Notes under the pieces: model-generated
What the model was told of the DNA's origin: nothing
The model's database searches: none
Seen by the model: the letters and a program-made list of their open reading frames with translations, nothing else
Assembly (NCBI GenBank): GCA_017515465.1
Contig: JAFWFV010000054.1
Span: 1,479 to 65,478, forward strand
Direction: 5' to 3'
Source: Clostridiales bacterium
Lineage (GTDB): Bacteria; Bacillota; Clostridia; Saccharofermentanales; Saccharofermentanaceae
Length of the DNA: 64,000 bases
Position numbers and translations under genes: made by a program
Part shown: positions 2,386-40,416 of the stretch, piece by piece
How positions within the stretch are numbered: position 1 is the first letter of the stretch
How the letters are laid out: every line of letters starts with the position of its first letter

Positions 2386-3475
2386 TTTCAGCGTCAGGCC
2401 TGGCTTTTGATAACTTCTGGCCGAGGATCAAGATAACTGTCACCAGCGCAACAAAGAGGAAGACAGCAAATACTATCATCCAGACGAACATGTCGGTCAT
2501 GGTCTGCTGGGCAGACATCTCCCAGAAGGGCAGTTCATACCCTGACAGGAAGTTTCTCATCTCGCCGGGAGGGGTCATGTGATCTATTACATTTCCGGGG
2601 GCGAACCTGTCAGTTATGCTTACAACGTAGAATCCGGGTGACGAGATGTTATATCCCGGGATGGAATTTCTCACATCTATCACTGCAACGCCATCTACGG
2701 ATTCCGGCATCATGACCTCATAGGACAACACTGCCGGCGTAACAGGTGTCTCAGATGAGGAGCAGTACTCCTCCAGGCAGTCGAAATAGACATATGCCCT
2801 CAGAGCCCTGTCATCGTGCTCGTCCACTACGCCTATGATCGTATATTCCCTGTCCCACAGGGTGACACGCTCACCGATGACATCGTAGGAGCTGAAGAAC
2901 TTCCACGCCAGTTCGTCATTCAGGACTATCTGGTACTTGTCAACATCCTGGACAGGCAGGAATCCGCCTGACAGGAACTCAAAGGGATGAAAAGCCCTGT
3001 AATTGCCTGATACTGCGTAGATGTCAGCTTCACTATTGATCTCGAAATCCTGATGGGTGCATACCAGATCCGCCCTGACAAATGAACAGAATGCATCTGT
3101 CCAGCCCTCGGGATCTATTGGTTTGTCGGTAGATCTCCTTCGGACTCCTGATGCGGAATCGACGACGCCCTGCAGTACCTTGCGCATGTTATAGATGTCG
3201 GTCTTGGCCAGGCTCTGGCCGTATTCGGTATAGACTGAAGGCGTCTTGTCACCGCCCGATCTGGCTCCTCTGGAGTAGACTGCCACGTGCCTGAACGATG
3301 TCTCTCCTCCCTGACTCCACACTGAGGCCTGGTTTCTCTCAGGGCGGGACCTGTATCCTGAAACGATGCAGATGACGCTTACGATGCACATGATGATGCT
3401 AACGGCAAGTATCACCGCCGGGACATTCTTCAGAAATGAAATGATCTTTTCTCTCATGTTACTTGCCTGCCGCAT
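2375..3475 (-). CDS. MacB/FtsX-type permease-like membrane protein. It keeps the N-terminal TM and the extracytoplasmic core domain but lacks the C-terminal FtsX bundle, so it may be truncated.
   Basis: 366 aa with an N-terminal TM (VPAVILAVSIIMCIVSVICIV). A MacB_PCD-like segment is present (YQIVLNDELAWKFFSSYDVIGERVTLWDREYTIIGVV). Only one further TM precedes the stop, which lies inside the tandem repeat. Confidence 0.5.
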   Translation of the reverse strand: MRQASNMREKIISFLKNVPAVILAVSIIMCIVSVICIVSGYRSRPERNQASVWSQGGETSFRHVAVYSRGARSGGDKTPSVYTEYGQSLAKTDIYNMRKVLQGVVDSASGVRRRSTDKPIDPEGWTDAFCSFVRADLVCTHQDFEINSEADIYAVSGNYRAFHPFEFLSGGFLPVQDVDKYQIVLNDELAWKFFSSYDVIGERVTLWDREYTIIGVVDEHDDRALRAYVYFDCLEEYCSSSETPVTPAVLSYEVMMPESVDGVAVIDVRNSIPGYNISSPGFYVVSITDRFAPGNVIDHMTPPGEMRNFLSGYELPFWEMSAQQTMTDMFVWMIVFAVFLFVALVTVILILGQKLSKARPDAEKVE

Positions 3476-7181: not shown

Positions 7182-9479
7182 TCAGTAATTCTCCTGGGCA
7201 TATACCATGTATCTGGAATACAGGGCATCTGCCACGGCTTCGATACTCTTTCCCTGTGTATAATACGTATCTATCTCCTCTTTTGTGACATTGTACAGAC
7301 CCCAGTCGTAAACACTCACTGTATCTGCTGCCTCTATCTGAGCCAGATAATTATCTTCCAGTTCCCGGGACATCGGTATAACGGGGCCCTGATCGCACCA
7401 GCCGGTCGCTCCCTGATCGCGGACGAACCTGTTCATATAGAGCATGCGCTGTTCCCTGGTGCATCCGTCCGGGTTCTTCATGATCTCAAGGTATTCGTTA
7501 AAGACATCTTTGTTTACCGGTACCGCACCCGAAGAACAGATATTGTGCTGAGACCGTCCTGACAGAAGGGTGTTGATGAATGAAATACATGCGTCCTGTT
7601 TATCTGTCGAGGAAGACACTGCGACTGAGCATGTGGGAACTATCTCGTGTACTGAGCCGTCGATGGAAGGGTAACCCACATACACCGGATATTCTCCGAA
7701 TTCCTTTCTCAGCATATCGTAGAAATATACATCTCCGAAAACGTCCTCATATAATGATACCCTGCCTCTTGCAACCTCTCCGGGATCAATGTACTCCTGG
7801 TACTGCATGGCATCCATCTCCTCCTGGGATATGCCGTTTTCGATCGCGAATCTCACGATGTCCAGCACGCCTTCAGATGTGAGCTTACCTGACCGGTATA
7901 TCCTCTTAAGATCGCATCCCAGAGAATTATACACCAAATCGGTTGAAGTGATCTTGGCCTCAAAACTCTTCCGGTCATTATTGAACCCGTGAAGTGATGA
8001 TACGGATACTTCCGTATCGAATTCGCTTTTCTTTCCAAACAGACCGTAAAGATAGTAACCTGCAAAGATCTGATATACCTTTCCGTCATCCCTGACCAGC
8101 TTATCGCTGAGCGATGACATGTCGAGCACCTGCGAAACATCCATGATCAGGCCGTTTTCGCCAAGGTAGTCGTAGTCCATGAAATCACCGAAGAACATGT
8201 CGGGGACATCTCCCGATGAATACTTCGTCATGAGCTGTGCCCTGACCGCATCATTATCCGTTTCTTCACTCATATCGTACTGACTGTCCAGATCATCGAG
8301 CTTCAGGTAATAATCCTGCTGAGTGGTATTGAATTCATAAGCAGCATTTGCAATGTTACGGTCATTTACCACTCCGAATCCCTGAAGGGTTATCTTCTCC
8401 CTGTCTGCCAGATGGAGATCCTCGTTTACCGATATCAGAGAGATCTCCTCAACATCCAGGTCCTCACCATGATATATGTAGTCACGGTACATATGTGTTT
8501 CATCCAGGAATTTATAGGACAGATCGATATATGAATTTCCGCAGACCGTGGGGGGCTGGATGACCATATTTCCCTTGTCTGCGATGGGCACTGCCTGCTT
8601 ATTTTCCAGATCTATCCTGACCAGTTCGGTGCCTACAGTATCGCAGCAATAATAATTGCAGTAATCTGCTCCGTACCAGTCCATGAGCCTCACTCCACCC
8701 AGTTCAGCGGTGGTGCAGTACCTTTCAACAGTCTCCAGATCCATGTCGATCTCGTAGTACACGTAACTGTCTTCATCATACGCCATTGCTACTTCAGTCA
8801 TGGGGCCACTGCCCATGTCCGACATGTCCATTCCGTATCCGTAGAGCTTTCCGTTCTGTTCAAAGACACCATTCATGTCGAATGAACTGTTATCGTATTC
8901 GAACTCATCCGTCAGATTGCCGTCACGGTCATATCTGCTGATCTTGGTGCCCTGCATACGGACAAAGCCTTCATCCGTCTTTGCAATGCTGCTGTAGAAG
9001 GAGTAGTCATCCGGCTCGGCACTGCCCTGCTTGATCAGATTACCATCGTAATCATAAAGCAGGAAGCCTGATCCGTCGCAGCATACCGCAAACCGGTCTT
9101 CCCCTATATCACAACAGCTCCACACTGAAGCTTCCCGTGGGATCTCCAGTTCCACTTCCTTTTCTATCTGTCCATCATAATTGCAGATGTATAAGTAATC
9201 CTGATCCACGCTGTCAGACTCATCGTCGCAGCCTGCGTATGAACGCGCTAATATGCATGCCTTGTCTCCATAGGCGAAAGGATAGATCGAATCAGACTTA
9301 CGGGGAAGGGTAACATTCTTTCCCACAAAATACGTATTCTTGTAATCCGAGGCTGCCGCCGGATCATTTCCTCCACCGGGAACATTCCCCGGTTCGTCTT
9401 CATCTTTGCTGCATGATGCTAATGAGAGCATCATGCTGAGCATAACTACACCTGCGATCAATCTGTTCTTGTTCATCAT
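7182..9479 (-). CDS. large lipoprotein: N-terminal extra domain of about 350 aa plus a C-terminal family-1 solute-binding-protein-like domain
   Basis: 765 aa. The signal peptide carries the lipobox LSLASC. The C-terminal half has SBP-like segments (SSGDVPDMFFGDF...). It sits directly upstream of the two CUT1 permeases and is a paralog of 10738-13074. Confidence 0.6.
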   Translation of the reverse strand: MMNKNRLIAGVVMLSMMLSLASCSKDEDEPGNVPGGGNDPAAASDYKNTYFVGKNVTLPRKSDSIYPFAYGDKACILARSYAGCDDESDSVDQDYLYICNYDGQIEKEVELEIPREASVWSCCDIGEDRFAVCCDGSGFLLYDYDGNLIKQGSAEPDDYSFYSSIAKTDEGFVRMQGTKISRYDRDGNLTDEFEYDNSSFDMNGVFEQNGKLYGYGMDMSDMGSGPMTEVAMAYDEDSYVYYEIDMDLETVERYCTTAELGGVRLMDWYGADYCNYYCCDTVGTELVRIDLENKQAVPIADKGNMVIQPPTVCGNSYIDLSYKFLDETHMYRDYIYHGEDLDVEEISLISVNEDLHLADREKITLQGFGVVNDRNIANAAYEFNTTQQDYYLKLDDLDSQYDMSEETDNDAVRAQLMTKYSSGDVPDMFFGDFMDYDYLGENGLIMDVSQVLDMSSLSDKLVRDDGKVYQIFAGYYLYGLFGKKSEFDTEVSVSSLHGFNNDRKSFEAKITSTDLVYNSLGCDLKRIYRSGKLTSEGVLDIVRFAIENGISQEEMDAMQYQEYIDPGEVARGRVSLYEDVFGDVYFYDMLRKEFGEYPVYVGYPSIDGSVHEIVPTCSVAVSSSTDKQDACISFINTLLSGRSQHNICSSGAVPVNKDVFNEYLEIMKNPDGCTREQRMLYMNRFVRDQGATGWCDQGPVIPMSRELEDNYLAQIEAADTVSVYDWGLYNVTKEEIDTYYTQGKSIEAVADALYSRYMVYAQENY

Positions 9480-13139: not shown

Positions 13140-14264
13140 TTACGGTAGTCCCATAATGTCGGTTATGCGCAACATCGTACGGGCGGCAACCTCTTCATCC
13201 ATGTTGAGGAATGAGAGCACATATGCAGCCTCCCCGTCAAAGTACAGATTGTACGAAGCAGACATGAAAGGGTCTGTTATCTTGTATTTATAGTATCTGA
13301 CACCGTACTTCTTGCCGCTGTCTGTCAGCTCGGTAGTACGCCCGGTATCTCTCCGTGCAATGTTTGCCGCCATGCTGTTATAGAACTCCTGTGTATGTTC
13401 CATAGTGTCACACTCGACACGCATGACAACATATCTGGTAGCACGTATGTCGTCCGGATCCGAATCCAGCTGGTAAAAGATATCTATATGCGTGACATCG
13501 TGGAACATGGCCATACGGTCCTTATCCATGACGCCTGAAATGCTGATGAAATCATCAGTCTGGATATAGTAGCATCCGGGTTCTCCGATCTCCATATTTA
13601 GATCGAATTCCGACGAATCTATTTCCGTGGCTTTCAACTCATCTACCAGTATCGGCATCCTGTCCTCGGACTTTAGTGCCATATTGCAGTCAACGCCTGA
13701 CATATCGGGAGTAGGTATGTAGAGGATGGGACATATGACATCCAGCAGCTGGGTCATTCCGTTGTCCTTATACTCCATTCCCTGGAGGATCAGCACGTGA
13801 TCGTATTCGGTATAGACAGCTTTCATTTCTGCAGTCCTGAGCTGTGTCATCCCGACCAGGAAACCATACCTGATCGTATCACTTGTCTTTACCTCGATGT
13901 CCTGGGTATTCTCGTTAAAGAATTCCAGTGCATCCTCTTCCGTTTCAAACTGGAGCAGGTGTGCTTCCAGTTCCTTATATGCTCCGTCCTTGCAGGAGAT
14001 GCCCTGTATGAACTCCAGCTGACGTATGGCCTTGTCAGACAAGGTCGGTCTATCAGTCACGGTATACATTCCGGCCAGCATGGCACGGTCGTTCTCAAAC
14101 TGTTCCTCGATCTCGGAATACGAATCGTATTCCTCGGCATCGTATTCCTCCATGGCCCGTTTGAATTCCTCGATGGAAATGATACTCGTGCGCCCTACGG
14201 ATCTGCAGGAGGCACACACGATGACTGTCAGACACAATGTCAATGCTAATACTATCTTCTTCAT
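13140..14264 (-). CDS. lipoprotein, member 3 of a tandem paralog family ending in GLP
   Basis: 374 aa with lipobox VCASC and C-terminus ITDIMGLP. Its ATG overlaps the stop of the upstream paralog (ATGA). Confidence 0.7.
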   Translation of the reverse strand: MKKIVLALTLCLTVIVCASCRSVGRTSIISIEEFKRAMEEYDAEEYDSYSEIEEQFENDRAMLAGMYTVTDRPTLSDKAIRQLEFIQGISCKDGAYKELEAHLLQFETEEDALEFFNENTQDIEVKTSDTIRYGFLVGMTQLRTAEMKAVYTEYDHVLILQGMEYKDNGMTQLLDVICPILYIPTPDMSGVDCNMALKSEDRMPILVDELKATEIDSSEFDLNMEIGEPGCYYIQTDDFISISGVMDKDRMAMFHDVTHIDIFYQLDSDPDDIRATRYVVMRVECDTMEHTQEFYNSMAANIARRDTGRTTELTDSGKKYGVRYYKYKITDPFMSASYNLYFDGEAAYVLSFLNMDEEVAARTMLRITDIMGLP

Positions 14265-15499
14265 GGCAATCCCATTATCTCCAATGCCTCATTAAATGAA
14301 TCGGTGTAGGCAGTATCTGCGTTTCCGATACTGTTCATGCAGAGCGTTATGTATACGTTTTCTCCGTCCAGATACACTTGATAATAATAGCCTGCGATCT
14401 CGAGCCTGAACTTAGTATACCTGATCCCGTCAAGCTCTCCCGAATCAGTCTCCTCCAGGTAATCACCTGCCATTGACAGGCTGCCGAGTATGTCATCGTA
14501 TGCATCAGCGGCGCTGTCTTCATCCGAATAACAGAGCTCATAGATCATGATACCTCCGGATTTGCCCGCTGAATAGGACATGTCGTAGATGATCCCGACC
14601 CGGGTGATCGCATCAGGATCGCCTGCAGAATCCAGGTTCAGACCTGATACATCAAAAGGATCGTCAGACAGATAATACCCTGTTATTGACGAGCTGCGGC
14701 CCTGTCCTGATCCGATCCTGGTTATCGATGGCATTGATGAATCCAATTCCTGATAACCTCGGGCCTCAACGAGAGCCATGAACCTGTCTTCTATCTCAGG
14801 AGTTGCCAGGCAGTCCCAGAAGCTGAGATCCGGAGAAGGGATCTCCAAATAACCGGTCAGTTCAGTCAATTCCACAGTAACATCATTGGACTTGTTTTGC
14901 GATCCCATCAACAGCATTACGCTGTCACAGTCCACATATACGGCGAAGCAAACAGCGCTGTGACCTTTGCATAACGTCGTAAACATGAGATCCATGTCAC
15001 CGTCAACAAGTTTTTCCGAACTAGATTCTGACGTGCCGTCATCTAATGACTTGATATATTTGTTGCATGACTTGTAGGCAGTGTCGGCATCCTCATAGGA
15101 ACCGAACTGCATGCTGCAGCAAAGCACCGATATGACGCCGGGATCATGATCCTCGTTCCTCATATATACAGTTGCCTTTTCTATGCTCTTGGAATAGATG
15201 TTCAGGAGCAATTCCTCAGCTGCATCGGCATAAAGACCGTTGATGCTCTCATCATAAAACAGATGTCTGATGTCCTTGCCCTCTGCCTTAATGAACATGC
15301 CTGCGGACAGTGCGCGGGGATTCTCCAGGTCATCCGTTATCTCCTCGAGGGTATCGTAGCCTTCTGCGTCGTTCTCCTCACATGCGGCATACAGCCTGTC
15401 AGGTGATACCCTGCTCTCCTGCTTCAGAAAAGGAATGGAGCAGGAAAAGACTGATACCGACATCAGGGATATGATCAATACGCATATGACTTTTTTCAT
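14261..15499 (-). CDS. lipoprotein, member 2 of the GLP-terminal paralog family
   Basis: I prefer the start at MKKVICVLIISLMSVSVFSC (the lipobox), which abuts the upstream stop at 15501. The C-terminus is ALEIMGLP. The ORF track extends to 15544. Confidence 0.7.
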   Translation of the reverse strand: MKKVICVLIISLMSVSVFSCSIPFLKQESRVSPDRLYAACEENDAEGYDTLEEITDDLENPRALSAGMFIKAEGKDIRHLFYDESINGLYADAAEELLLNIYSKSIEKATVYMRNEDHDPGVISVLCCSMQFGSYEDADTAYKSCNKYIKSLDDGTSESSSEKLVDGDMDLMFTTLCKGHSAVCFAVYVDCDSVMLLMGSQNKSNDVTVELTELTGYLEIPSPDLSFWDCLATPEIEDRFMALVEARGYQELDSSMPSITRIGSGQGRSSSITGYYLSDDPFDVSGLNLDSAGDPDAITRVGIIYDMSYSAGKSGGIMIYELCYSDEDSAADAYDDILGSLSMAGDYLEETDSGELDGIRYTKFRLEIAGYYYQVYLDGENVYITLCMNSIGNADTAYTDSFNEALEIMGLP

Positions 15500-15500
15500 A

Positions 15501-16730
15501 TCACGGCAACCCCAGGATATCACTGTATTCTTCATACAGATCATCTACAGCATCAGACTGCAGAGAAATAGCACCTATCAGATACACCATGTTGCCTTCG
15601 AGGAAGATAGAATATCTAATATGAGAAAAATTGTCCGCGTAAAGTTTAGTATAGGTTATGCCACCGGTCTCACCGGTATCGGTATTGCTAATGATCTCAT
15701 CGTTTTCTTCCATTAACTCTGTAACGGCATGTTCGTATAAATATGATGCAGATACATCGCCATCCAGAGTAAATGAAAAAGCATAAAATGCCGTATAGCC
15801 GGAAGGCATGGTATAAGCAGCCCTTATCATGCTTATCTGATCCTCATATCCGCTATATATATCCTCGATTCCTGTCATGATAGAAGGGTCGGTGCCCTCA
15901 GTATATATATTCAATACCTGACCTTCCAAATCCACTCTGTCAGAGAATTCTTCAGGATCGAGATATTCCATATCCAGTTCGTCGATCATCAGCAGTATCC
16001 TGTCTTCCACGTCAGGCACTGCCAGACAGTCCCATCTGCTCATATCGGAATAAGGGATCTCCAATATACCGGCATATTCTTCAAATTCATCAGTAATGTC
16101 GTTGCATTTATCCTCATATCCCGTCATTACCATTACCGAGCTGCCCTCAATGTAGACGCTCTGGCAGGATGCACTCCTGACAGAAAATATCTGTGTTGCA
16201 GTACATTCGAGCTTTCCGTCCTCGAAGTGATCCTTGTATGACTGAACCTTCTCATCCTCAGTCAGTCCGGCCATAAGATCGTTGCATGAATTGTAGTATT
16301 TCCAGGCTGCCTCATCGTCATCGAACTCTGCAGACAGGATGGCAAGCCTGACGGTTCCGCCGTCCCTGTTTTCCTCACCCCTGATCATCAGGGTTGCCTT
16401 GTTAATGGACTTGGAATAGAGATTATACAGATAGTCTTCCGAAACAGGCTCAAAGAGTCCGTTGAAAGTGTCGTCATTAAGTGCGTGGCGAATGTATTTG
16501 CCCTCGAGGGAGATGAACATTCCGGCCATCAAAGCGCGCTTGTTTTCGGCATCGCCGGCCATCTCTTCCAGGTCATCGTAATCCTCGCAGTCATACTCAG
16601 AAAGTGCATCATAAACACTATCCGGAGAAATCCTGTTTCCTTTGCCAAAGAACGGGATGCTGCATCCGGATAAAGCCACAGAAAATATAAGAACTGAAGT
16701 AATAATCTTTGTGCGGTCAAAAAAAGCCAT
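15501..16730 (-). CDS. lipoprotein, member 1 of the GLP-terminal paralog family
   Basis: I prefer the start at MAFFDRTKIITSVLIFSVALSGC (ATG 16730-16728), which has a GGGGGA Shine-Dalgarno. The longer ORF to 16865 would run across the prfC start. The C-terminus is YSDILGLP. Confidence 0.7.
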   Translation of the reverse strand: MAFFDRTKIITSVLIFSVALSGCSIPFFGKGNRISPDSVYDALSEYDCEDYDDLEEMAGDAENKRALMAGMFISLEGKYIRHALNDDTFNGLFEPVSEDYLYNLYSKSINKATLMIRGEENRDGGTVRLAILSAEFDDDEAAWKYYNSCNDLMAGLTEDEKVQSYKDHFEDGKLECTATQIFSVRSASCQSVYIEGSSVMVMTGYEDKCNDITDEFEEYAGILEIPYSDMSRWDCLAVPDVEDRILLMIDELDMEYLDPEEFSDRVDLEGQVLNIYTEGTDPSIMTGIEDIYSGYEDQISMIRAAYTMPSGYTAFYAFSFTLDGDVSASYLYEHAVTELMEENDEIISNTDTGETGGITYTKLYADNFSHIRYSIFLEGNMVYLIGAISLQSDAVDDLYEEYSDILGLP

Positions 16731-16755
16731 ATAGTCCCCCTTAACACCACTTCCT

Positions 16756-16777
16756 ATTATATCAAATGTGATATAAT
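16756..16777. promoter_or_regulatory. palindromic pair of divergent extended -10 elements (ATTATATCA-aatg-TGATATAAT)
   Basis: TGATATAAT reads rightward toward prfC at 16769-16777. The perfect reverse complement at 16756-16764 reads leftward toward the lipoprotein operon. Confidence 0.35.
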
Positions 16778-16812
16778 ACGCTATTGCAAATAATAAATAT
16801 AAGGTGAACCAC

Positions 16813-18426
16813 ATGGCTTTGACAACTAACGAAGAGATCACGAGACGCAGGACTTTTGCCATCATCTCGCACCCTGACGCAGGTAAGACAACTATGACGG
16901 AGAAGCTCCTCCTCTACGGAGGCGCCATCCACATGGCAGGATCGGTTAAGGCGCGTAAGGCAGCCCGCCACGCCACATCTGACTGGATGGAGATCGAGAA
17001 AAAGCGTGGTATCTCCGTAACATCATCAGTTATGCAGTTCAACTACGACGGATACTGCATCAACATACTCGATACCCCCGGACACCAGGACTTCTCCGAG
17101 GACACATACCGAACGCTGTGTGCTGCCGATGCCGCAGTCATGCTCCTGGACGGTGCAAAGGGTGTCGAGGCACAGACCATCAAGCTCTTCGCTGTCTGCC
17201 GCAAGAGAGGAATACCCATATTCACCTTTATCAATAAGATGGACCGCGCAGCCAAGAATCCCTTCGATCTGATCGACGAACTGGAAAAGGTACTTGGCAT
17301 CAGATCATGCCCGATCAACTGGCCCATAGGAACCGACGGTGATTTCGAAGGCGTTTACGAGAGATCTTCAGGCAAGGTACTGTTCTTTGACAAGTCCAAC
17401 CAGGATCACGGTGCATCAATGGTAACACAGCAGGTTGCAGGAATAGACGATCCCAAGCTGGCTGAGATGATCTCACCTGACCACTACGAGACACTCCAGA
17501 ACGATATAGAGCTCCTGGACATGGCAGGCGATGAATTCGACAAGGAAAAGGTGGACAAGGGGCTTTTGACACCGGTATTCTTCGGATCTGCCATCACCAA
17601 CTTCGGTGTGGAGACTTTCCTTAAGCACTTCCTGGAGATGAGCCCCATGCCCCAGCCCTATCACACCAGCGACGGATTCGCAGAACCCACAGACGATATG
17701 TTCTCAGGATTCGTATTCAAGATCCAGGCAAACATGGATCCCAACCACAGGGACCGTATGGCGTTCCTGCGTATATGCTCAGGCAAGTATGAGAAGAACA
17801 TGACAGTAAACCACCTGAGACTCGGCAAGAAGATCACCCTGGCCCAGCCACAGCAGTTCATGGCCCAGGACAGGAACATAGTTGAGGATGCTTATGCTGG
17901 AGACATCATAGGCATATTCGATCCCGGTCATTTCAGGATCGGTGATACTCTGATATCTTCTAACCGCAAGTTCGAGTTTGACCCTATCCCCGTCTTCCCG
18001 CCTGAGAATTTCGCACGCGTCGCACCCAAGGATTCCATGAAGCGTAAGCAGTTCCTCAAGGGCATCGAACAGCTCTCACAGGAAGGTGCCGTACAGCTGT
18101 ATAAGCAGCCCGACATCGGAACGGAGACATACATCATGGGCGTTGTAGGCGTACTGCAGTTCGACGTGCTCGAATACCGCCTCAAGGGTGAATACGGAGT
18201 AGACATCCTCAGGACTCCCCTGAACTACCGTCTGGCCAGATGGGTCAAGAGCGATGCAGAAGGCGACTTCGATCCTCACAAGATGACCCTCACCACCACC
18301 TCATGCCTCGTCCTGGACAGAGACGACGAGCCGGTCGTACTGTTCGAATCAGAGTGGGCAGTCCAGTGGGCGATCGACCATAACGAAGCCCTCAAGCTCA
18401 GATTCGAGGACATCCACACCAAGTAA
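16813..18426 (+). CDS. prfC: peptide chain release factor 3
   Basis: MALTTNEEITRRRTFAIISHPDAGKTT (G1 motif), DTPGHQDF (G3) and NKMD (G4). The AAGGTGA Shine-Dalgarno lies 5 nt before the ATG at 16813. The ORF track begins at a GTG at 16804. Confidence 0.9.
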   Translation: MALTTNEEITRRRTFAIISHPDAGKTTMTEKLLLYGGAIHMAGSVKARKAARHATSDWMEIEKKRGISVTSSVMQFNYDGYCINILDTPGHQDFSEDTYRTLCAADAAVMLLDGAKGVEAQTIKLFAVCRKRGIPIFTFINKMDRAAKNPFDLIDELEKVLGIRSCPINWPIGTDGDFEGVYERSSGKVLFFDKSNQDHGASMVTQQVAGIDDPKLAEMISPDHYETLQNDIELLDMAGDEFDKEKVDKGLLTPVFFGSAITNFGVETFLKHFLEMSPMPQPYHTSDGFAEPTDDMFSGFVFKIQANMDPNHRDRMAFLRICSGKYEKNMTVNHLRLGKKITLAQPQQFMAQDRNIVEDAYAGDIIGIFDPGHFRIGDTLISSNRKFEFDPIPVFPPENFARVAPKDSMKRKQFLKGIEQLSQEGAVQLYKQPDIGTETYIMGVVGVLQFDVLEYRLKGEYGVDILRTPLNYRLARWVKSDAEGDFDPHKMTLTTTSCLVLDRDDEPVVLFESEWAVQWAIDHNEALKLRFEDIHTK

Positions 18427-20858: not shown

Positions 20859-21440
20859 TTACTTGTTCTTCAGGATAAAACTCTTTGTATTGGAATCGAG
20901 AGCACACAGATTCTTGATTATGAATTCCTTTGGCTCTACGAAATTGCCTCTCGCCCAGAGGCCAATTACAGCCGTACAGCCTCTGGAACGGTAATTTGTA
21001 TGGTATCTGAGGGTGATGTCGCTGATATTGGCTTCGATCTCTTCTGCCTCCAGCTGCCTGAACAGGCCCTCCAGGATCCTGTTGAACCTGTCTCTGAGCT
21101 TACATGTGCTGTTGGGGCTGAACATCATCCTGAATTCGGGACGGTTGTCGTCGATATAGTCTATCAGATGCTTGAAGAACTGTTCGGAACGCAGAGACTC
21201 CAGTTCCAGGACCAGCATTCCCAGATCGATCAGGATGTCATGCTCCATCTTGTCGTAAAGATCAAATACGTCCAGATAATGCTTGTAGAAGGTTCCCCTG
21301 TTGATGTCGGCCTTGTCTGTGATCTCCTTGACGGTGACCTTGTGAAGTTCCTTCTCAACCAAGAGTTCGCATAATGCGTCCTTAATGGCCTTGCGGGTCT
21401 TGAGCGTTCTTCTGTCGTATGTATTTTTACTTTCTTCCAT
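20859..21440 (-). CDS. TetR/AcrR-family transcriptional regulator
   Basis: 193 aa with the N-terminal HTH KVTVKEITDKADINRGTFYKHY. Its stop is 1 nt from the pepT start. Confidence 0.85.
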   Translation of the reverse strand: MEESKNTYDRRTLKTRKAIKDALCELLVEKELHKVTVKEITDKADINRGTFYKHYLDVFDLYDKMEHDILIDLGMLVLELESLRSEQFFKHLIDYIDDNRPEFRMMFSPNSTCKLRDRFNRILEGLFRQLEAEEIEANISDITLRYHTNYRSRGCTAVIGLWARGNFVEPKEFIIKNLCALDSNTKSFILKNK

Positions 21441-21506
21441 CTGACATAGTCCCCATTCGTAATACTATACTATCTTGTTTAGCACTAAATCGTTCTTTTC
21501 GCAACT

Positions 21507-21554
21507 TAAAAAACAGAAATAGAACAGATCCCTTCATTACGAAGGGATCTGTTC
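21507..21554 (-). terminator. strong rho-independent terminator
   Basis: A perfect 14-bp stem (GAACAGATCCCTTC / GAAGGGATCTGTTC) with a 5-nt loop. On the minus strand it is followed by TATTTCTGTTTTTT. Confidence 0.8.
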
Positions 21555-21572
21555 CACGGGTTGGGTTTTACG

Positions 21573-21727
21573 AAAATATCAGGCGTACGTTGAGTACGGG
21601 TCTAACACCGACTCAAACGCAGCGCGTGTTTGTCCGACGATATTTCTGGAGGGTAGGTAGCAGGCAGACACGCCGGATGATCTGCAAGCTTGAAGGGTCG
21701 TGATCTATGTAAAACGCCTGATATTTT
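21573..21727 (-). ncRNA. candidate structured RNA or 3'-UTR element of about 155 nt, family unknown
   Basis: A perfect 13-bp closing helix (AAAATATCAGGCG / CGCCTGATATTTT) encloses about 129 nt containing further helices. It lies between the stop of the small peptide gene and the terminator, and no credible ORF is present. Confidence 0.3.
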
Positions 21728-21755
21728 TCTATCGAATAAGCGTCTAATGTCTTTC

Positions 21756-22025
21756 TCATATAAGGTCCCTGCTCTCAATGATAACGGGGCCATTGCCATT
21801 TCCGTTTCCGGGATTCTTGGGATTCCATCCGCCTACAGGAGGTATGGGTTCAGATACGGGACCGGGGAAAATAGGTCTGTCAGGCATTTCGGGGATCTGG
21901 ATGTACGGAGGATATCCGTCTGTCTTTATTCCAATGGATGCACCCAGGCGCGTATCTGATGAACCGCCGCCTGTAACCTCGTCCAGCTTCTTCTTTTCGA
22001 TCTCATAAGGTTTGTTAGTCTTCAT
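21756..22025 (-). CDS. small secreted-peptide precursor candidate with a double-glycine-type leader and a proline-rich core
   Basis: 89 aa reading MKTNKPYEIEKKKLDEVTGG|G..., with a GGGAGGA Shine-Dalgarno 8 nt upstream. It has its own candidate promoter after the terminator at 22101-22143. The core is 19% Pro, contains NGNGNG and has no Cys. Confidence 0.55.
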   Translation of the reverse strand: MKTNKPYEIEKKKLDEVTGGGSSDTRLGASIGIKTDGYPPYIQIPEMPDRPIFPGPVSEPIPPVGGWNPKNPGNGNGNGPVIIESRDLI

Positions 22026-22100
22026 ACTCTTGTCCTCCCTGTTGTTTTGGTTTGGTTTGTTTGTACCTTAATTATTGCAACAGAGGACATTACAAGCAAT

Positions 22101-22143
22101 AAATAGATAAAGGCCGATATGATGCTTAAGCAACATATCGGCC
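22101..22143 (-). terminator. rho-independent terminator after the CPBP gene
   Basis: GGCCGATATG-loop-CATATCGGCC, followed on the minus strand by TTTATCTATTTATT. Confidence 0.6.
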
Positions 22144-22171
22144 CGTCAGTGTTGTGCTTTGTACGAAAAAC

Positions 22172-23128
22172 TCAGGATTTCTTCTCTTCAGCGGCTTTCT
22201 TTCCTGTAGGAATGAAGAAGAAGATCACTATTCCGATCACCAGAACGATGGTAACGCCGAGTCCTCCTTCGAGTCCGAACGCTCCGCCGTTGAACAGATC
22301 CTTGCCCTCAACGAAGTTGGTCTTCAATACGCTGGGCATCAGCGGATTTCCGCTGACCTGGATACCGTAGAAATTACCCTGGACCATATTCCAGACGGAG
22401 TGGATCGCAGAGCACATCCAGATATTGCCTGTCTTGACGAATACCAGTGATGCAAACAGACCGAACAGTATGAGGTTGATGAAAGCGAGGACGCTGAGAC
22501 CGTCGTTAGCCAGATGCAGGCAGGCAAAGAACAGTGCGTTTATGATCGTACCTGCAACCACCGAGTTCCTCCTGGAGATGCTTGTCAAAAGGAATCCGCG
22601 GCAAACAACCTCTTCCTCCATACCCTGTATGAACCATCCGATGTTATACAGGATAAAGTAAAGCATGCTGAAATTGGAACTCTTCTCTATCGTGATCGCG
22701 CCTGTCAGATAACAGATCAGTATGGCAAGGGAAAAGATCCCGAAGCCGACCACTATGCCTATCAGATAATGGACTACAGCATTCTTCTTGACGAATCCGA
22801 TGGTACGGATCTTTCTCTTTTCAACAAACTTAACATAAAGTGCGAACATTACCGTTATAACACCCAGGAAAACGAGAGTCAGAACAGTAGCAAGTTCTGA
22901 CTGCAGGTATGCCCGGTTGAAAGCATCCGGACCTTTGAAGATCATCGGAACAAATGCGGGAATGGACACCAGCATCGAATCGATGATGTCGCCGATCATG
23001 AGTATAAGGAATGCAATGAGCGTGAGCAATGCCCAGTTCAGACCGGGCTTCCTGCCTTCTTTTGTTTTGGCCAGAGCAGACTCCCTCGCCTCAACAATTA
23101 TATCTGGAACACCAAATATCTCTTTCAT
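22172..23128 (-). CDS. CPBP-family intramembrane glutamic endopeptidase (CAAX protease / Abi, bacteriocin-immunity type)
   Basis: 318 aa and multi-TM. Motifs EEEVVCRGF (EExxxR), FFACLH (FxxxH) and IHSVWN (HxxxN) are present. Its ATG overlaps the upstream stop (ATGA at 23125-23128). Confidence 0.85.
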   Translation of the reverse strand: MKEIFGVPDIIVEARESALAKTKEGRKPGLNWALLTLIAFLILMIGDIIDSMLVSIPAFVPMIFKGPDAFNRAYLQSELATVLTLVFLGVITVMFALYVKFVEKRKIRTIGFVKKNAVVHYLIGIVVGFGIFSLAILICYLTGAITIEKSSNFSMLYFILYNIGWFIQGMEEEVVCRGFLLTSISRRNSVVAGTIINALFFACLHLANDGLSVLAFINLILFGLFASLVFVKTGNIWMCSAIHSVWNMVQGNFYGIQVSGNPLMPSVLKTNFVEGKDLFNGGAFGLEGGLGVTIVLVIGIVIFFFIPTGKKAAEEKKS

Positions 23129-23499
23129 GATTTTGTAACCACATCTCCTGATCTGACATCTGAACTCGTAATACCCGACAGCATGATGCCTACGCTGTCT
23201 CCTTCGTTAGCTTCATCCAGGATCCTCCTGAAAGCTTCGATACCGGATACCGTGCATCCGATCCCGTTAACACTAACTCTGTCATTGACCTTGAGAGATC
23301 CTCTGGAGACCGTACCGGTAACGACCACGCCTCTGCCTGTGATGCTGAACACGTCTTTAACGGTCATCACGAAAGATGCTCCGTAATCCGCAAACATGGG
23401 AACCTTGCCGGATGAACCTTCCTCCTGATTCAAAGCCTCATTAAGGTCCTTCTCATCGTCGGTATCATAATTACCGAGCCTTCCACCTATAATACCCAT
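23125..23499 (-). CDS. stand-alone EF-Tu domain II-like beta-barrel protein
   Basis: 124 aa. FVMTVKDVFSITGRGVVVTGTVSRGSLKVNDRVSV...VSGIEAFRRILDEANEGDSVGIMLSG...RSGDVV aligns by eye with EF-Tu domain II (FLMPVEDVFSI(T/S)GRGTVVTGRVERG...GVEMFRK.LD.G.AGDNVG.LLRG...RGQVL). No GTPase domain is present. An AGGTGG Shine-Dalgarno is present. Confidence 0.75.
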   Translation of the reverse strand: MGIIGGRLGNYDTDDEKDLNEALNQEEGSSGKVPMFADYGASFVMTVKDVFSITGRGVVVTGTVSRGSLKVNDRVSVNGIGCTVSGIEAFRRILDEANEGDSVGIMLSGITSSDVRSGDVVTKS

Positions 23500-23531: not shown

Positions 23532-23559
23532 ATTATACTTCATACATCAAAGGGTTCAA
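23532..23559 (-). promoter_or_regulatory. candidate sigma-70-type promoter of the EF-Tu-D2/CPBP operon
   Basis: The minus strand reads TTGAAC-16 nt-TATAAT. The -35 hexamer is part of the first copy of the repeated GTTTTGAAC motif. Confidence 0.45.
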
Positions 23560-23745
23560 AACTCGTCTCAGGCGCTGCCCAGTTCAAAACTCATCACCGC
23601 GCTGCCCGGTTCAAGAATCGTCTCCGCACGCCTCTTCCCAGTTCAAAACTCATCACCGCGCGCTGCCCAGTTCAAAACTCGTCTCAGGCGCAGTTAAGTC
23701 GCCTCGCGACTTACGCTGTCCGAGCACTGAGACGACGTTTTGAAC
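23553..23745. repeat. array of 5 direct copies plus 1 inverted copy of a GTTCAAAACTCGTCTCAG-like motif
   Basis: GTTCAAAAC (one copy is GTTCAAGAA) occurs at 23554, 23582, 23609, 23641 and 23670, giving a period of 27-32 bp. The inverted copy GTTTTGAAC is at 23737-23745, inside the nudC 3' end. Confidence 0.85.
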
Positions 23746-36455: not shown

Positions 36456-39400
36456 CTATCGGTTCGTAATGACTATGAGCGATTCGCCCGGCTGCAGGTT
36501 ATATCTTCTGTATGAATTGGACAGCCTCATCGTCGTTAGGTGTCTGCCGTCACTTGAATACCTGTCTACGGAAGAGCTCAAAAAGCTCTGTCCGGCATTA
36601 TACATCAGGAACTGCTTCAGGCTGTCCGAGGTGTTAGTAACCACCATGTAGGTCGAGTTGTCTCTGTCGAACTGGGCCGTTGAACAGTCTGCCAGGAAGG
36701 ATTCGGCACTCTGGCCGCTGTCGGATCTCATGGGATCTGCAACGTTTACATACATCCTGTCGGAACCTGCAAAATCCTTTATGAGGCTCAGCATGTTGAG
36801 GGCCATTATCATCTCCTCCCCCTTCTCGAAAACGTTCTCGTCCTCATAAAGAGCAGGCTTGAAGGATGTGCGGCAATTGATCATCGCCATCTCCGTCGAT
36901 ATGGAATCCTCACCCAGTACGGCAGTAATATACTGTGCCAGGTTAAATGAGCCGTTGAAATCAAGTGAGCTGATGAACTCGCCCATGTCCATGCCGGTGG
37001 TTACTCGGGGAGCCTTGTACTGGACCTCCTCATAGACCTCCGAGAGGTTCTGCAGATATGTCTTGCCATCGTCCTGGACAGAGGTCAGGAGCATGCCGGA
37101 ACAATGGGCATCGGCAGAGGAAAGCATGGTCCCTCCGTCGTATCTCATGCCGTCTATGAATACCACCTTGTCCTTGATATCCGTATAGAACTCGGACTGG
37201 GTGATCATGCCGATGACGAAATCAACAAAGCTGCCCCTCTGGACATCGCTGACAAAGCAATCCTCCGTATCGTTGATCTCGATATAGACGTGCTCGAACT
37301 GTCTGCTCCAGGGCAGTGCCGTTCCGTTGTTGATCCTGATGGTCCCGTATTCGGAGGATACAGATCCGCACATGTAGGCTATGATGTTGTTCACCTGTTC
37401 GGGAGTCGTATAGGAACCCAATACGAACCAGGGGTCAGCTCCTGCATCCCTGGTGAGCCTGAGGCTCTTTTCCAGAGACCTGACGTCTGATACCTGATAT
37501 GTTGTTCCCTCGCTGTCAGTGTAGGATGCACCGGTGGACAGTTCTGAGATGCCGTAGAGCACGCTGCCCGAGAATCCGTTGGACCCGATGCCCAGGTTAT
37601 TGAGCCTGATGGCAGAAGGTGCCCCTGCTATTATGGCTGAGGAAAAGCTTTCGGGAATATCCGAATCACCAATGCTGTCAGGTCCTACATAGATGTGGTC
37701 GATCAGAATGGATCCCACGCCTTCGAAGGAGACGTTGAACCTGATCTCCTCATCACTGATCATGTAGTCGTTTACGATGAATACGGCCGAGTATTCCGTA
37801 TAGTTGTTCTTGAGCTTTCTGCACTTGACTCCCTGTCTGCCGAAGGTCTCACCGTCCAGCCAGAGGTTTACCGTGCCGGGTGCGGCCCTGCCCTCCTCTG
37901 CCTTGATGTAGACGCTTACCTTATAGAACTTGTCAGATGCAAAGTTGTCCCTGGCAGTTCCCGGGAGCTTCTGGCTCATGACGTGGATGTTGTGGGTGCT
38001 GCCTGTCATCCTGACGGAGTTGGCCCCGTCGTAGGGATCGGGTGACAGTTCGATGCTGGTTCCTGTTCCGTATGCGTCCCATACGCCCTCATCGGGAGAC
38101 AGGCTCCAGTCATTTCCGTCCGTTACGGACAGTGATGTATATGAATTCGATGTCTCGATGAAGCAGATGTCACCCATGGTGATCGCATCATCGGGAGCGG
38201 AGTTCTCCAGTGTGAAATCCGACAGGACTGATGAAGTATAGAGTTCATCGTCCATGGCAAATATTATCCTGTTGTTCGTACAGGGATAGATGCCGCTGAT
38301 GCCGTTGTTCTCGGATGAGATGGAAACGGCTTCACCTGTCTTGTCGGAGACGATCATGGCCGTCTTGTCGTTTGTGAGGACTATTATCTGGCCGTTGTCC
38401 GTTACAGTGATCTCGCGGGCCAGATCCCTGCTGTCCATGGTCGCGGAAAGCAGACGGCATGAACCGTCATCAGCTATCGCAGTTATGGAACCGTCATCAT
38501 TCAGGATATATACCTGGTCCTGATGGCACACCAGTGATGAAACATTCCTGTCTGAATAGATGTCGCCTGTATCCTCAACGCTGTAGATCAGACCGCCGGT
38601 GGATCTGAGGATCGTATTATCCTCCAGGATGACAATGGTCGTATCCCCTGCCGAATCGATAACGACGGGCTTGGATGATACGGGCAGGGTTATGGGATAA
38701 TACCTGCCGTTCTCGTAAACAAAGAGCTTGTGATCCGATGTAAGTACCGTGAGGTTATTAGATGTTGCGGCGCAGGATACCACTGACATGCTGCCGTCCC
38801 TGTCCTCAGGACCCATCTCCATAAATGATCTGCCGTCAGGTGATGAGAATACGACGCCGTCGCCGGTGACTGCAAAGATGCTGCTGCCATTGCAGGAGAT
38901 ATCAGCGAAGCTGACGTTACCGCCGTCATATGCCTTGATCAGCTGTTCGGAGGTGATGTCTGCCAGTATGGTTCCTGACTCCGTCAATGCGGCAACGGTG
39001 TTCTGCAGGCAGACTGTCTTTATCACCGTCTTGTCGATATTTGCAGACATCTCCATCTCGATGGGGGATATCTGGCCTAACCGGGCGGATTCGAATCCCG
39101 TGATCCTGCCCTCGTATCTCAGCTGCATGCTGCCGCTGCCGTCAATGGATACGACCCTGACGGGCGCTCCTATGGCGCGGGATGTATTGATCTTGCTGGC
39201 CAGTACGTCCTCAGGAGAGAAGAAAAGTGACTTCCCCTCGCTGTCCAGGACGGTAAGGGAATAATAAGCAGATTCCTTTTCAAATGAGGGATTTCGTATC
39301 AGGTTAACGTTGGGGATGTAATCCAGATTGATGCCCGTACCCTTGTACTGTGCATTCTCCATCTGTGTAGTCAGGGACAGGGTCACGAGTTCAGCTCTGA

Positions 39401-39527
39401 ACCCGAAGAGGGCCGTAAGCAGGAGGATCGTAAGGGACAATATGACCACGATGGCCAGTATCAGGATGCCCAGCTTGAGCCTCTTGCGCCTGAGATTGCC
39501 GAACCTGAAGGATTCAAGCCTGTTCAT
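36456..39527 (-). CDS. membrane-anchored multidomain extracytoplasmic protein (propeller-like region, CBM-like module, C-terminal glycosidase-like region), function unknown
   Basis: 1023 aa with one N-terminal TM. The central segment (WSLSPDEGVWDAYGTGTSIEL...SILIDHIYV) resembles a CBM4/9/22-type beta-sandwich. The remaining domain guesses are by eye only. Confidence 0.4.
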   Translation of the reverse strand: MNRLESFRFGNLRRKRLKLGILILAIVVILSLTILLLTALFGFRAELVTLSLTTQMENAQYKGTGINLDYIPNVNLIRNPSFEKESAYYSLTVLDSEGKSLFFSPEDVLASKINTSRAIGAPVRVVSIDGSGSMQLRYEGRITGFESARLGQISPIEMEMSANIDKTVIKTVCLQNTVAALTESGTILADITSEQLIKAYDGGNVSFADISCNGSSIFAVTGDGVVFSSPDGRSFMEMGPEDRDGSMSVVSCAATSNNLTVLTSDHKLFVYENGRYYPITLPVSSKPVVIDSAGDTTIVILEDNTILRSTGGLIYSVEDTGDIYSDRNVSSLVCHQDQVYILNDDGSITAIADDGSCRLLSATMDSRDLAREITVTDNGQIIVLTNDKTAMIVSDKTGEAVSISSENNGISGIYPCTNNRIIFAMDDELYTSSVLSDFTLENSAPDDAITMGDICFIETSNSYTSLSVTDGNDWSLSPDEGVWDAYGTGTSIELSPDPYDGANSVRMTGSTHNIHVMSQKLPGTARDNFASDKFYKVSVYIKAEEGRAAPGTVNLWLDGETFGRQGVKCRKLKNNYTEYSAVFIVNDYMISDEEIRFNVSFEGVGSILIDHIYVGPDSIGDSDIPESFSSAIIAGAPSAIRLNNLGIGSNGFSGSVLYGISELSTGASYTDSEGTTYQVSDVRSLEKSLRLTRDAGADPWFVLGSYTTPEQVNNIIAYMCGSVSSEYGTIRINNGTALPWSRQFEHVYIEINDTEDCFVSDVQRGSFVDFVIGMITQSEFYTDIKDKVVFIDGMRYDGGTMLSSADAHCSGMLLTSVQDDGKTYLQNLSEVYEEVQYKAPRVTTGMDMGEFISSLDFNGSFNLAQYITAVLGEDSISTEMAMINCRTSFKPALYEDENVFEKGEEMIMALNMLSLIKDFAGSDRMYVNVADPMRSDSGQSAESFLADCSTAQFDRDNSTYMVVTNTSDSLKQFLMYNAGQSFLSSSVDRYSSDGRHLTTMRLSNSYRRYNLQPGESLIVITNR

Positions 39528-40416
39528 TAGCCGTCTCCTCCTGTCCGTGATTCTTGAGATAGATCTTCTTCGCCAGGAAGAAGAGTGCGGGAACGGTCAT
39601 CATGAACTGAATGGTATAAAGACCGAATAACTGCTGGGTGTCAAAGCCGGTGAGTTCTGATATGTAATACAGACCCGATCCGAAGAAATTAAACACCGAG
39701 TGAACGATCACAGATACTATTAGATTGTCGTAAGCATAATATGTCAGTGCCATAAACAGTCCCGCTATGATGGCATATCCTATGTGGAGGGACACTCCGT
39801 GTAATATGCCGAATAATACTGCTGAAATGACCGCTGCGATTCCGGGTGAGAACACCTTGCTGATAGATCCGTAGGCTATGCCCCTGAATGCTATCTCCTC
39901 CTCAAAAGGAACGATCACGATCAGCGAAATGATGTAGAGGATCTGATCCCAGACGGGGTAGATTATCTCATCATCGTAGGTCTTTATGTGGTCGGAATAC
40001 TCCTGTACGGATTCCTTCATGGAATCCAGGTATTCACTGATGATCCTCGCAAACCTCATGTATGTGGTCACGAATGCCAGGAGCGCCAGACCCATGGCGA
40101 TCCCGAACAGGATCATGCTTATCCTGGGAACGGAGACCCTGATCAGGTCTCCTCCGGTCTTGAACAGGAACATGCCGGCAAACCTGGATATGATCAGCAG
40201 AAATGAGATCCCCAGTACTGATGTCGCCATGCTGTACAGACCCTGGTAATAACCGATATCAAATCCGAAATACAGCAGAGCCAGACCGGATACGATGTCG
40301 GATACGTAGAGCACCGCGATGGAAAGCGCTGTACAGAGCGTTACGTTCATCAGCCCTCTGGCTGTATCCATGAACCACTTTCTGTTGAACTTTGCAGGAG
40401 CTATACCGGTTTCCAA
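39514..40416 (-). CDS. CPBP-family intramembrane protease (second copy in the window)
   Basis: 300 aa and multi-TM, with motifs EEEIAFRGI, FGILHG and VHSVFNF. Confidence 0.8.
   Translation of the reverse strand: METGIAPAKFNRKWFMDTARGLMNVTLCTALSIAVLYVSDIVSGLALLYFGFDIGYYQGLYSMATSVLGISFLLIISRFAGMFLFKTGGDLIRVSVPRISMILFGIAMGLALLAFVTTYMRFARIISEYLDSMKESVQEYSDHIKTYDDEIIYPVWDQILYIISLIVIVPFEEEIAFRGIAYGSISKVFSPGIAAVISAVLFGILHGVSLHIGYAIIAGLFMALTYYAYDNLIVSVIVHSVFNFFGSGLYYISELTGFDTQQLFGLYTIQFMMTVPALFFLAKKIYLKNHGQEETANEQA

Follow-up and report, generated by a model that had tools for sequence, protein, structure and literature searches.

A stand-alone EF-Tu domain II protein encoded beside a resident CPBP-family protease in a Clostridiales genome: a large protein family and a plausible but facultative link

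Organization of the locus

The window analysed in this work is a stretch of 64,000 nucleotides from a Clostridiales bacterium (GenBank assembly GCA_017515465.1, contig JAFWFV010000054.1, positions 1,479 to 65,478 of the forward strand). Our subject is a group of three adjacent genes, all on the minus strand of the window: a gene for a protein composed of a short tail and an EF-Tu domain II barrel (D2), a gene for a CPBP-family intramembrane protease, and an orphan open reading frame (ORF), here called PEP, whose product begins with a Gly-Gly-type N-terminus. A first-pass annotation, made from the letters alone, had taken these genes for a dedicated three-gene module. Our results tentatively favour a composite locus, in which a D2-only gene is facultatively linked to a resident CPBP gene, and they place PEP outside that link. 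The result that reaches furthest beyond the frame of the earlier annotation is that D2-only proteins form a large, mis-annotated and uncharacterised family.

D2 and CPBP form a predicted two-gene operon, which begins with a promoter-like site (23559..23532), is translationally coupled at the junction of the two genes and closes with a terminator. The stop codon of D2 overlaps the start codon of CPBP in the sequence ATGA (..TCATGA..), as had been noticed earlier. The terminator that the same annotation had placed behind CPBP was also recovered; it is visible in folding as a hairpin (22144..22111) with a U-run, and was missed by a simple terminator scan. Coordinates of the features are collected in Table 1.

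Table 1. Features of the D2-CPBP-PEP locus, in coordinates of the window
Feature	Position	Strand	Basis and remarks
D2-only protein, 124 aa; degenerate N-terminal tail and a single EF-Tu-type domain II barrel	23125..23499	-	Domain, fold, family hidden Markov model (HMM)
CPBP (Rce1-like) intramembrane protease, 318 aa; three catalytic motifs intact	22172..23128	-	Pfam, motifs, syntenic ortholog in the relatives L012-L014
PEP, orphan ORF of 89 aa; charged GG-type N-terminus and acidic Pro/Gly-rich core	21756..22025	-	Codon usage, alleles
Sigma-70-like promoter TTGAAC-16-TATAAT (10/12) upstream of D2	23532..23559	-	Consensus match only
Intrinsic terminator after CPBP; 11-bp G+C-rich stem 22144..22111, then U-run	22097..22144	-	Fold of 22026-22175, z = -5.1
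Predicted long hairpin, UGUCCUCUGUUG paired with the Shine-Dalgarno sequence of PEP	22031..22089	-	Minimum free energy and centroid structures
29-nt tandem repeat, ~4.8 copies, between nudC and D2	23554..23691	.	TRF
PEP-tetR spacer, highly conserved and strongly structured, with an 18-bp terminator hairpin 21557..21519	21441..21755	-	Comparison with the same-species contig L001; fold z = -5.9
TetR-family regulator abutting pepT	20859..21440	-	Context; absent, as is PEP, from the syntenic locus of relatives; membership with the D2-CPBP pair not indicated

A family of stand-alone EF-Tu domain II proteins

The D2 protein matched the Pfam model GTP_EFTU_D2 (PF03144) over residues 57-122 (E = 1.4e-12, 48.3 bits against a cut-off of 30.3), and it matched the NCBIfam models of EF-Tu only at their positions ~207-297. 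EF-Tu chains from the PDB align with it at residues 205-295 (E = 1e-20). Neither the G domain (PF00009) nor domain III was found by Pfam or NCBIfam in its 124 residues. In the AlphaFold2 model, a 40-residue disordered tail is followed by a six-stranded beta-barrel at residues 41-124, predicted with high local confidence (pLDDT >90), which Foldseek superimposed on EF-Tu domain II with a root mean square deviation of 1.1 A over 85 columns and an identity of ~45%, one of the hairpins being shortened by a 5-residue deletion. The earlier statement that this protein is not a normal translation factor is thus borne out.

A word-indexed search with the window protein alone returned 5 proteins only, and the family looked rare until a profile built from those five relatives yielded thousands of candidates; the details given below come from the best 120. 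Single-barrel proteins of 120-153 aa made up 114 of these 120 profile matches. They share an architecture in which an N-terminal motif and a variable linker (36-58 residues for tail and linker together) precede a barrel that ends the protein, and the window protein, with 124 aa and a barrel at 41-124, fits this build. The consensus of the N-terminal motif is MGLFDFFKKPKTDLEQYYE (M-G-L-F-D-F-F-K-K-x-K-T-D/E-x-E-x-Y-Y-E); M1 is present in 110 of 110 sequences, F4 in 98, K/R8 in 104, K/R9 in 102, D/E13 in 97 and Y17 in 75, and no Pfam model covers this motif.

The barrels are homologous to EF-Tu domain II and have the same fold, and the family largely retains the pocket for the tRNA acceptor end. 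The pocket pattern of EF-Tu itself, EDFTEFRN (E215, D216, F218, T228, E259, F261, R262, N273), is the commonest one in the family (34 of 113 members), and most other members carry the conservative variants Q215 or V228. What sets D2-only proteins apart from EF-Tu is the absence of the G domain and domain III, an N-terminal motif of their own, and the dipeptide 'TV' in place of P[IV]. Since they are devoid of both domains, they cannot act as GTPases or deliver aminoacyl-tRNA to the ribosome. The RefSeq name under which members are filed, "EF-Tu/IF-2/RF-3 family GTPase" (in Acetatifactor muris, WP_103241691.1, uncultured Acetatifactor and Frisingicoccus), is therefore misleading. Stand-alone domain II, which had appeared to be a rarity, thus belongs to a family already present in RefSeq, which comprises at least hundreds of distinct sequences, is common in gut and rumen Clostridia, and is annotated as "GTPase" despite having no G domain. 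With its largely preserved residues for the aminoacylated tRNA end and its conserved N-terminal motif, this family is a tractable candidate for a new regulator linked to tRNA or translation.

In AlphaFold2 models the N-terminal motif appeared as coil followed by a low-confidence helix, undocked from the barrel. Such a flexible and undocked tail is consistent with a linear motif that binds partners. The idea that the motif forms an amphipathic membrane anchor is unsupported; its hydrophobic moment was no better than that of shuffled sequences, and known MinD anchors were likewise not told apart from shuffles by this measure. Two proteins (P0126 and P0215, of 248 and 238 aa) carry two tandem EF-Tu domain II barrels after the N-terminal motif, and one entry (P0172) appears to be an artefact of gene calling, in which a MatE fragment has been joined to a D2-only gene. 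Scans of metagenomes and viral sequences with the D2-only alignment were not useful for extending the family: as tuf has this barrel too, the back-translated patterns picked it up, and all new loci proved to be genuine EF-Tu genes or fragments at contig ends, which gave no evidence of carriage by phages.

Several comparisons bear on the position of the window protein. Against a family HMM from which it had been left out, its barrel scored 96.2 bits; against an HMM of tuf domain II, it scored 78.5 bits. This difference of +17.7 bits is to be compared with values of 17 to 46 for family members and of -33 to -57 for 117 real tuf domains. The 'TV' preceding xDVF, found in 97 of 113 family members and in none of the 117 tuf segments, is present in the window protein as well, and in the neighbour-joining tree it groups with a subfamily bearing the motif MFxFxKKK, not with the CPBP-paired subfamily described below. 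By sequence, then, the window D2 is a divergent member of the D2-only family. An origin as a pseudogene fragment, which the first-pass annotation had named as a point to be checked, is set aside. The HMM discrimination rules out a piece of tuf, and no significant similarity was detected to prfC, located 5 kb away at 16804-18426 (+). The latter gene, coding for peptide chain release factor 3 (domains GTP_EFTU, EF-G_D2 and RF3_C), is the sole translational GTPase among the window ORFs scanned.

The CPBP protease and its coupling to D2

The CPBP protein matched the Rce1-like family model (PF02517) with E = 3.3e-18 (66.2 bits against a cut-off of 22.4). The three motifs recognized earlier, EExxxR, FxxxH and HxxxN, are all present (E172-E173-x3-R177, F201-x3-H205 and H243-x3-N247) and are invariant in 33 orthologs; by sequence, the protein is apparently an active protease, co-expressed with D2. 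It represents a subfamily of 310-335 aa from Clostridia, with a conserved C-terminal segment NGGAFGLEGG and conserved residues also in the cytosolic N-terminus (P8, E-A-R, G29-KPG-NW), and 784 relatives of it were found in Clostridia. One ortholog has been named 'lysostaphin resistance A-like' by its source. Not every member of the CPBP family need act by proteolysis, and LnsB, which functions in lipoprotein N-acylation, is presented in one report as an example of a CPBP member serving as a non-proteolytic partner (PMC7387801).

Orthologs in relatives have GAGGGAGG, AAGGGAG or CAGGAG as the Shine-Dalgarno sequence 8-9 nt before the ATG. The window gene has only an AGGAG 16 nt upstream of its ATG, together with the ATGA overlap. 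Lacking a well-spaced Shine-Dalgarno sequence of its own, it would rely on coupling to D2, and the loss of this signal, combined with the overlap, indicates at the sequence level that CPBP has been integrated into one translational unit with D2. A second CPBP/Rce1-like paralog of 300 aa is encoded in the window at 39514-40416 (-). Since it is only 33% identical to the first one over 87 aa (the catalytic core), the candidate partner of D2 appears to be specific at the level of the subfamily.

Recurrence of the D2-CPBP pairing

The neighbourhood of CPBP was followed in 80 CPBP-ortholog loci from species-representative genomes. A metagenome contig of the same species (L001, 98% identical) has the identical order D2-CPBP-PEP-TetR-PepT-GH16. 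In the three closest relatives (L012-L014: Ruminococcaceae bacterium YRB3002, a Clostridia metagenome-assembled genome and Mageeibacillus UBA4314), whose CPBP proteins are 55-57% identical to that of the window, the order is CarB-GGDEF-NudC-CPBP-PepT-GH16, with no D2, PEP or TetR. This synteny indicates that CPBP is the resident gene, flanked in the window by three genes inserted in this lineage only, D2 on one side and PEP and TetR on the other. In L014 (Mageeibacillus sp. UBA4314), the gap between nudC and CPBP is occupied by an unrelated gene for a 326-aa protein (2977-3957), which shows that the content of this slot is variable.

A second pairing was found in a clade of Lachnospiraceae (L021 and L092-L096), in which GuaA, a 264-aa protein, CPBP and D2 are encoded in this order and are followed by SbcCD. 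CPBP of this clade is 43-45% identical to the window protein over the full length, and D2 starts 15-24 nt after CPBP. In one member (L096) the CPBP-D2 pair is kept with different flanks. In a sister lineage (P0144; L226-L229), GuaA and the D2-SbcCD region are present, the latter with 72% nucleotide identity, and there is neither CPBP nor a remnant of it.

The remaining contexts of D2-only genes are diverse. The gene was found between rlmL and dagK, before a gene for a purine DNA glycosylase, alone, and, in A. muris, after a gene for a transglutaminase-like protein with a transmembrane anchor. In yet another lineage, the genes cysS-mrnC-rlmB-sigH are followed by D2-DUF3783-gltX-groESL, and D2 overlaps the start of the DUF3783 gene by 8 nt (L220, 4001-4757; also L221 and L222). 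This neighbourhood of translation and housekeeping genes may be more informative on the core role of the family than the pairing with CPBP.

The two pairings differ in gene order and, by all appearances, in origin. In the window, D2 has come to lie upstream of a resident CPBP gene; in Lachnospiraceae, D2 is the resident gene, and some lineages carry CPBP upstream of it while others do not. The paired D2 proteins of the two lineages are not each other's closest relatives in the neighbour-joining tree. These differences in origin, and the fact that the D2 proteins are not sisters, suggest that the pairing arose twice independently. Seen at 1 of 80 CPBP loci and in 2 of 8 D2 contexts, it is not obligatory. 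No paper describing the combination of D2 with CPBP, nor one containing both Pfam accessions, was found in the library searched, and no CPBP protein is known to have a partner derived from EF-Tu; the first-pass annotation, too, knew of no described system of such composition.

A composite locus with a facultative link

The most serious rival to a functional link is that D2 and CPBP are neighbours by chance: D2 would have landed in a permissive slot and been absorbed into the transcription unit of CPBP, the two proteins having unrelated functions and D2 acting autonomously, for instance in translation. A number of observations speak for this explanation and weigh against a link. A D2-like gene was found within 4 kb in only 1 of the 80 CPBP loci (L021), the remaining 79 being devoid of it when searched with the window protein and eight family queries. 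Of eight distinct D2 contexts, a small sample and no census, two adjoin CPBP and six do not, the latter including the operons with rlmL and dagK, the site after sigH beside DUF3783 and gltX, and the positions after the transglutaminase-like protein and before the DNA glycosylase. In L226-L229 the D2 gene persists without CPBP, as CPBP does without D2 elsewhere, so that neither gene needs the other nearby. The variable content of the nudC-CPBP slot means that the insertion of D2 could be opportunistic. The window protein is itself atypical in several respects. Its pocket is altered (K for E215 and S for N273); its N-terminus, MGIIGGRLGNYDTDDEKDLNE, aligns with the family motif at M1, G2 and the acidic stretch, the FDFFKK core being lost, so that the motif is degenerate; and in raw distance it is equally close to tuf and to members of the family.

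Chance is opposed, on the other hand, by the two independent juxtapositions, in opposite order, co-oriented and tightly spaced, with the same CPBP subfamily, although the genomes hold other CPBP paralogs. The pair in L096 has been kept though both of its flanks differ, and the window CPBP gene has lost its own Shine-Dalgarno sequence. By a rough estimate, reasoned and not computed, chance alone would produce two juxtapositions of this kind in about eight contexts with a probability of <1e-3, even with 10 CPBP paralogs per genome. We thus consider coincidence unlikely, though deserving of serious attention. That one CPBP subfamily adjoins D2-only genes twice independently makes a real functional link more probable than its absence; we consider the link plausible but facultative, and PEP is not part of it. 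The pairing noticed in the first-pass annotation does recur, as an unrelated lineage also has D2 beside a member of this CPBP subfamily, but it is not obligatory. The three-gene module as such is not upheld, as PEP is confined to one species, CPBP is syntenic in relatives without D2 or PEP, nearly all CPBP loci lack D2 and most D2-only genes lie elsewhere.

The reading that we prefer, and to which we would grant somewhat less than an even chance, is that the locus is a composite and not a dedicated three-gene system, with a D2-only gene facultatively linked to a resident CPBP gene. CPBP would have been passed down vertically, as a member of a subfamily that is common among Clostridia. In the lineage of the window, the D2-only gene would have been inserted between nudC and CPBP, bringing or acquiring its own promoter, and would have replaced the ribosome-binding site of CPBP, which would now be translated by coupling, the operon ending at the terminator. 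A separate insertion downstream would have added PEP, the conserved structured spacer and the TetR regulator.

As to the function of D2, stand-alone barrels resembling EF-Tu domain II are already known, the closest characterised analogue being Pbp11 of Thermococcales (PDB 7ANU; NCBIfam NF041207), which needs its N-terminal tail to bind tRNA and also binds the PAN-20S proteasome (PMC9540759). A small stand-alone barrel of this kind and a flexible N-terminal tail are common to both, as would be a link to a protease. The likeness is architectural only: the NF041207 model matched the window D2 weakly (8.4e-5, 22.5 bits against a cut-off of 100), Pbp11 is an archaeal orphan weakly similar to EF-Tu whereas the barrel of the window protein is close to bacterial EF-Tu, the partner of Pbp11 is the proteasome whereas the candidate partner here is a membrane protein of the CPBP family, and the N-terminal motifs are unrelated. 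One plausible explanation would be that D2-only proteins are cytosolic adaptors of the Pbp11 type, the barrel binding the acceptor end of tRNA or some other molecule recognized by EF-Tu domain II, and the flexible tail contacting partners, of which this CPBP subfamily may be one in some lineages. Where both proteins are encoded together, D2 might be made in a fixed ratio with CPBP and act as its regulator or client.

A broader proposal, for which we see only a slender chance, is that D2-only proteins are widespread bacterial mimics of EF-Tu domain II, which read aminoacyl-tRNA or the translational state through the acceptor-end pocket and signal through the N-terminal motif to varied partners, a specific CPBP being among them in at least two lineages. 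If this were true, the D2-only/CPBP pair would connect translation with proteolysis in bacteria, as Pbp11 and the proteasome do in archaea. Substrates or regulators are known for only a minority of bacterial CPBP proteases, and the repeated recruitment of D2-only genes beside one CPBP subfamily supplies, in any case, a concrete candidate partner that can be tested.

Alternative roles for PEP and for the free domain II

The earlier proposal of a maturation and immunity system holds that PEP is a secreted peptide with a double-glycine leader (a bacteriocin or a signal), that CPBP is an immunity or processing protease of the Abi type, and that D2 is accessory. Bacteriocin self-immunity is provided by CPBP/Abi proteins of the PlnI and SagE type, and another CPBP protein, MroQ, participates in maturation of the AgrD pheromone; these precedents speak for the idea. 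PEP itself looks coding, as judged by codon usage (score 0.444, compared with 0.429 +/- 0.14 for real genes of the window and a maximum of 0.361 for non-coding frames), and a strong Shine-Dalgarno sequence, GGGAGGA, lies 7 nt upstream of it. The leader MKTNKPYEIEKKKLDEVTGG matches the pattern I(-12), L(-7), V(-4), GG, and in the placing of these hydrophobic residues ahead of GG it resembles the double-glycine peptides exported by C39 systems. Among the 289 six-frame ORFs of the window, 2-3 show this pattern, which makes it uncommon but not decisive. Three alleles of PEP were compared; residues 1-41 are invariant and all six replacements fall within 42-85. Relative to L001 there are 6 nucleotide differences, and 4 of them change an amino acid. 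Such a pattern fits a secreted, diversifying peptide, if numbers as tiny as these are taken as a guide. Most of what had first been said of the peptide stands (its length of 89 aa, the strong Shine-Dalgarno sequence, the GG leader and the Pro-rich, Cys-free, acidic core with an NGNGNG tract), except that this core has 69 aa and not 68; it contains 18.8% Pro, carries a net charge of -2 and has no hydrophobic segment. The promoter postulated for it is not supported, as none that was convincing emerged from the promoter scan.

Other results argue against such a system. In an exhaustive phmmer search of 1.84 billion representative proteins, PEP retrieved only its own same-species cluster, and it was found neither in the 80 CPBP loci of relatives nor at other D2 loci. 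No leader or bacteriocin model of Pfam or NCBIfam matched it at E <= 1 beyond noise (Pfam Statherin, 0.046). No C39/ABC exporter was found in the 64-kb window, where the scan took in all ORFs of >=700 aa and the majority of those of >=300 aa. Thus, the two checks suggested at the outset, for homologs of the peptide and for an exporter, brought to light only the species' own cluster and no exporter in the window. The acidic, Pro/Gly-rich core without Cys also differs from what is exported by C39 systems, and a terminator separates CPBP from PEP.

The CPBP gene does not fit the role of immunity determinant either. With PlnI, SagE, MroQ, SpdC/LyrA and LnsB the window protein shares the family HMM match and the three motifs, but it lies outside a bacteriocin locus and belongs to the distinct 310-335-aa subfamily of Clostridia. 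Self-immunity of the Abi type is recognized by a bacteriocin locus and by co-inheritance, whereas CPBP is found in L012-L014 without PEP and was hence not acquired as a cognate immunity gene. With the leader-like pattern and the pattern of alleles as the points in its favour, we regard the maturation and immunity explanation as improbable. PEP is a species-specific orphan, not part of a conserved three-gene system, and a Gly-Gly N-terminus beside a CPBP gene is insufficient to call a bacteriocin/immunity module.

The remaining explanation, in which the free domain II mimics the EF-Tu surface docked by phage proteins or toxins and titrates them or triggers the protease in the manner of Lit and Gol, appears very improbable to us. 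In the precedent from T4, it is the Gol peptide in complex with EF-Tu that switches on Lit, but Lit is a zinc protease unrelated to CPBP that cleaves full-length EF-Tu in domain I, and the likeness is therefore conceptual only, lying in protease action that involves EF-Tu domains II/III; known D2-binding toxins come, to our knowledge, from Gram-negative systems. That a toxin can dock on EF-Tu domain 2 is documented for CdiA-CT of E. coli NC101, which binds to this domain exclusively (PMC5737660), and EF-Tu complexes with CdiA/CdiI and Tse6 were among the sequence and structural matches of D2. Nevertheless, PADLOC and PHROGs gave zero matches for D2, CPBP, PEP and canonical D2-only members, no D2-only gene was present among 39 viral-contig matches (barrel-only EF-Tu genes or contig-end fragments), the window locus has no phage association and is flanked by housekeeping genes (nudC, a GGDEF protein gene, carB, pepT, GH16 and prfC), and the D2 gene of Lachnospiraceae resides in stable synteny and not in variable islands. 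The defence role suggested in the first-pass annotation thus finds no backing here.

Other features of the window

The 29-nt repeat between nudC and D2 has the consensus GTTCAAAACTCATCACACGCGCTGCCCA, and each unit carries on the gene strand a TTGAAC hexamer resembling a -35 element; that of the promoter-like site of D2 falls inside the last unit. Relative to L001, this region shows indels of 28 nt and 5 nt, so that the copy number varies between strains, and the unit is missing in L012-L014. The repeat could be an insertion scar, a set of iterated operator sites or a phase-variable promoter region.

Both spacers around PEP are conserved between the two contigs of the species. The CPBP-PEP spacer (146 nt) shows 1 difference from L001. 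In its predicted hairpin, an A/C-rich loop of 33 nt separates UGUCCUCUGUUG from the Shine-Dalgarno sequence of PEP (GGGAGGA, 22039..22033), and such a structure would sequester the latter and occlude initiation of translation. The PEP-tetR spacer differs from L001 at 1 position in 315 nt, compared with ~2%, mostly synonymous, in the flanking genes; its terminator hairpin sits just upstream of tetR-pepT, and the spacer may be an attenuator or a small RNA. No Rfam family reached its gathering threshold anywhere in the window, and in E-value mode the surroundings of the locus yielded nothing above noise. A 48-aa ORF (21759..21613) that overlaps the stop of PEP as ATGA was rejected on its codon-usage score (-0.19, non-coding-like). 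The possibility that the insert from PEP to tetR is a plasmid-borne element was likewise dismissed, as it had no match in PLSDB and no second copy in the window or in the fetched loci.

Elsewhere in the window, several long ORFs (374, 427, 454, 765, 568 and 1023 aa) had no Pfam match at 1e-4 or 1e-5. They are located at 13140-16865, 7182-9479, 3459-5165 and 36456-39527, all on the minus strand, and three of them, at 13140-16865, are consecutive and overlapping.

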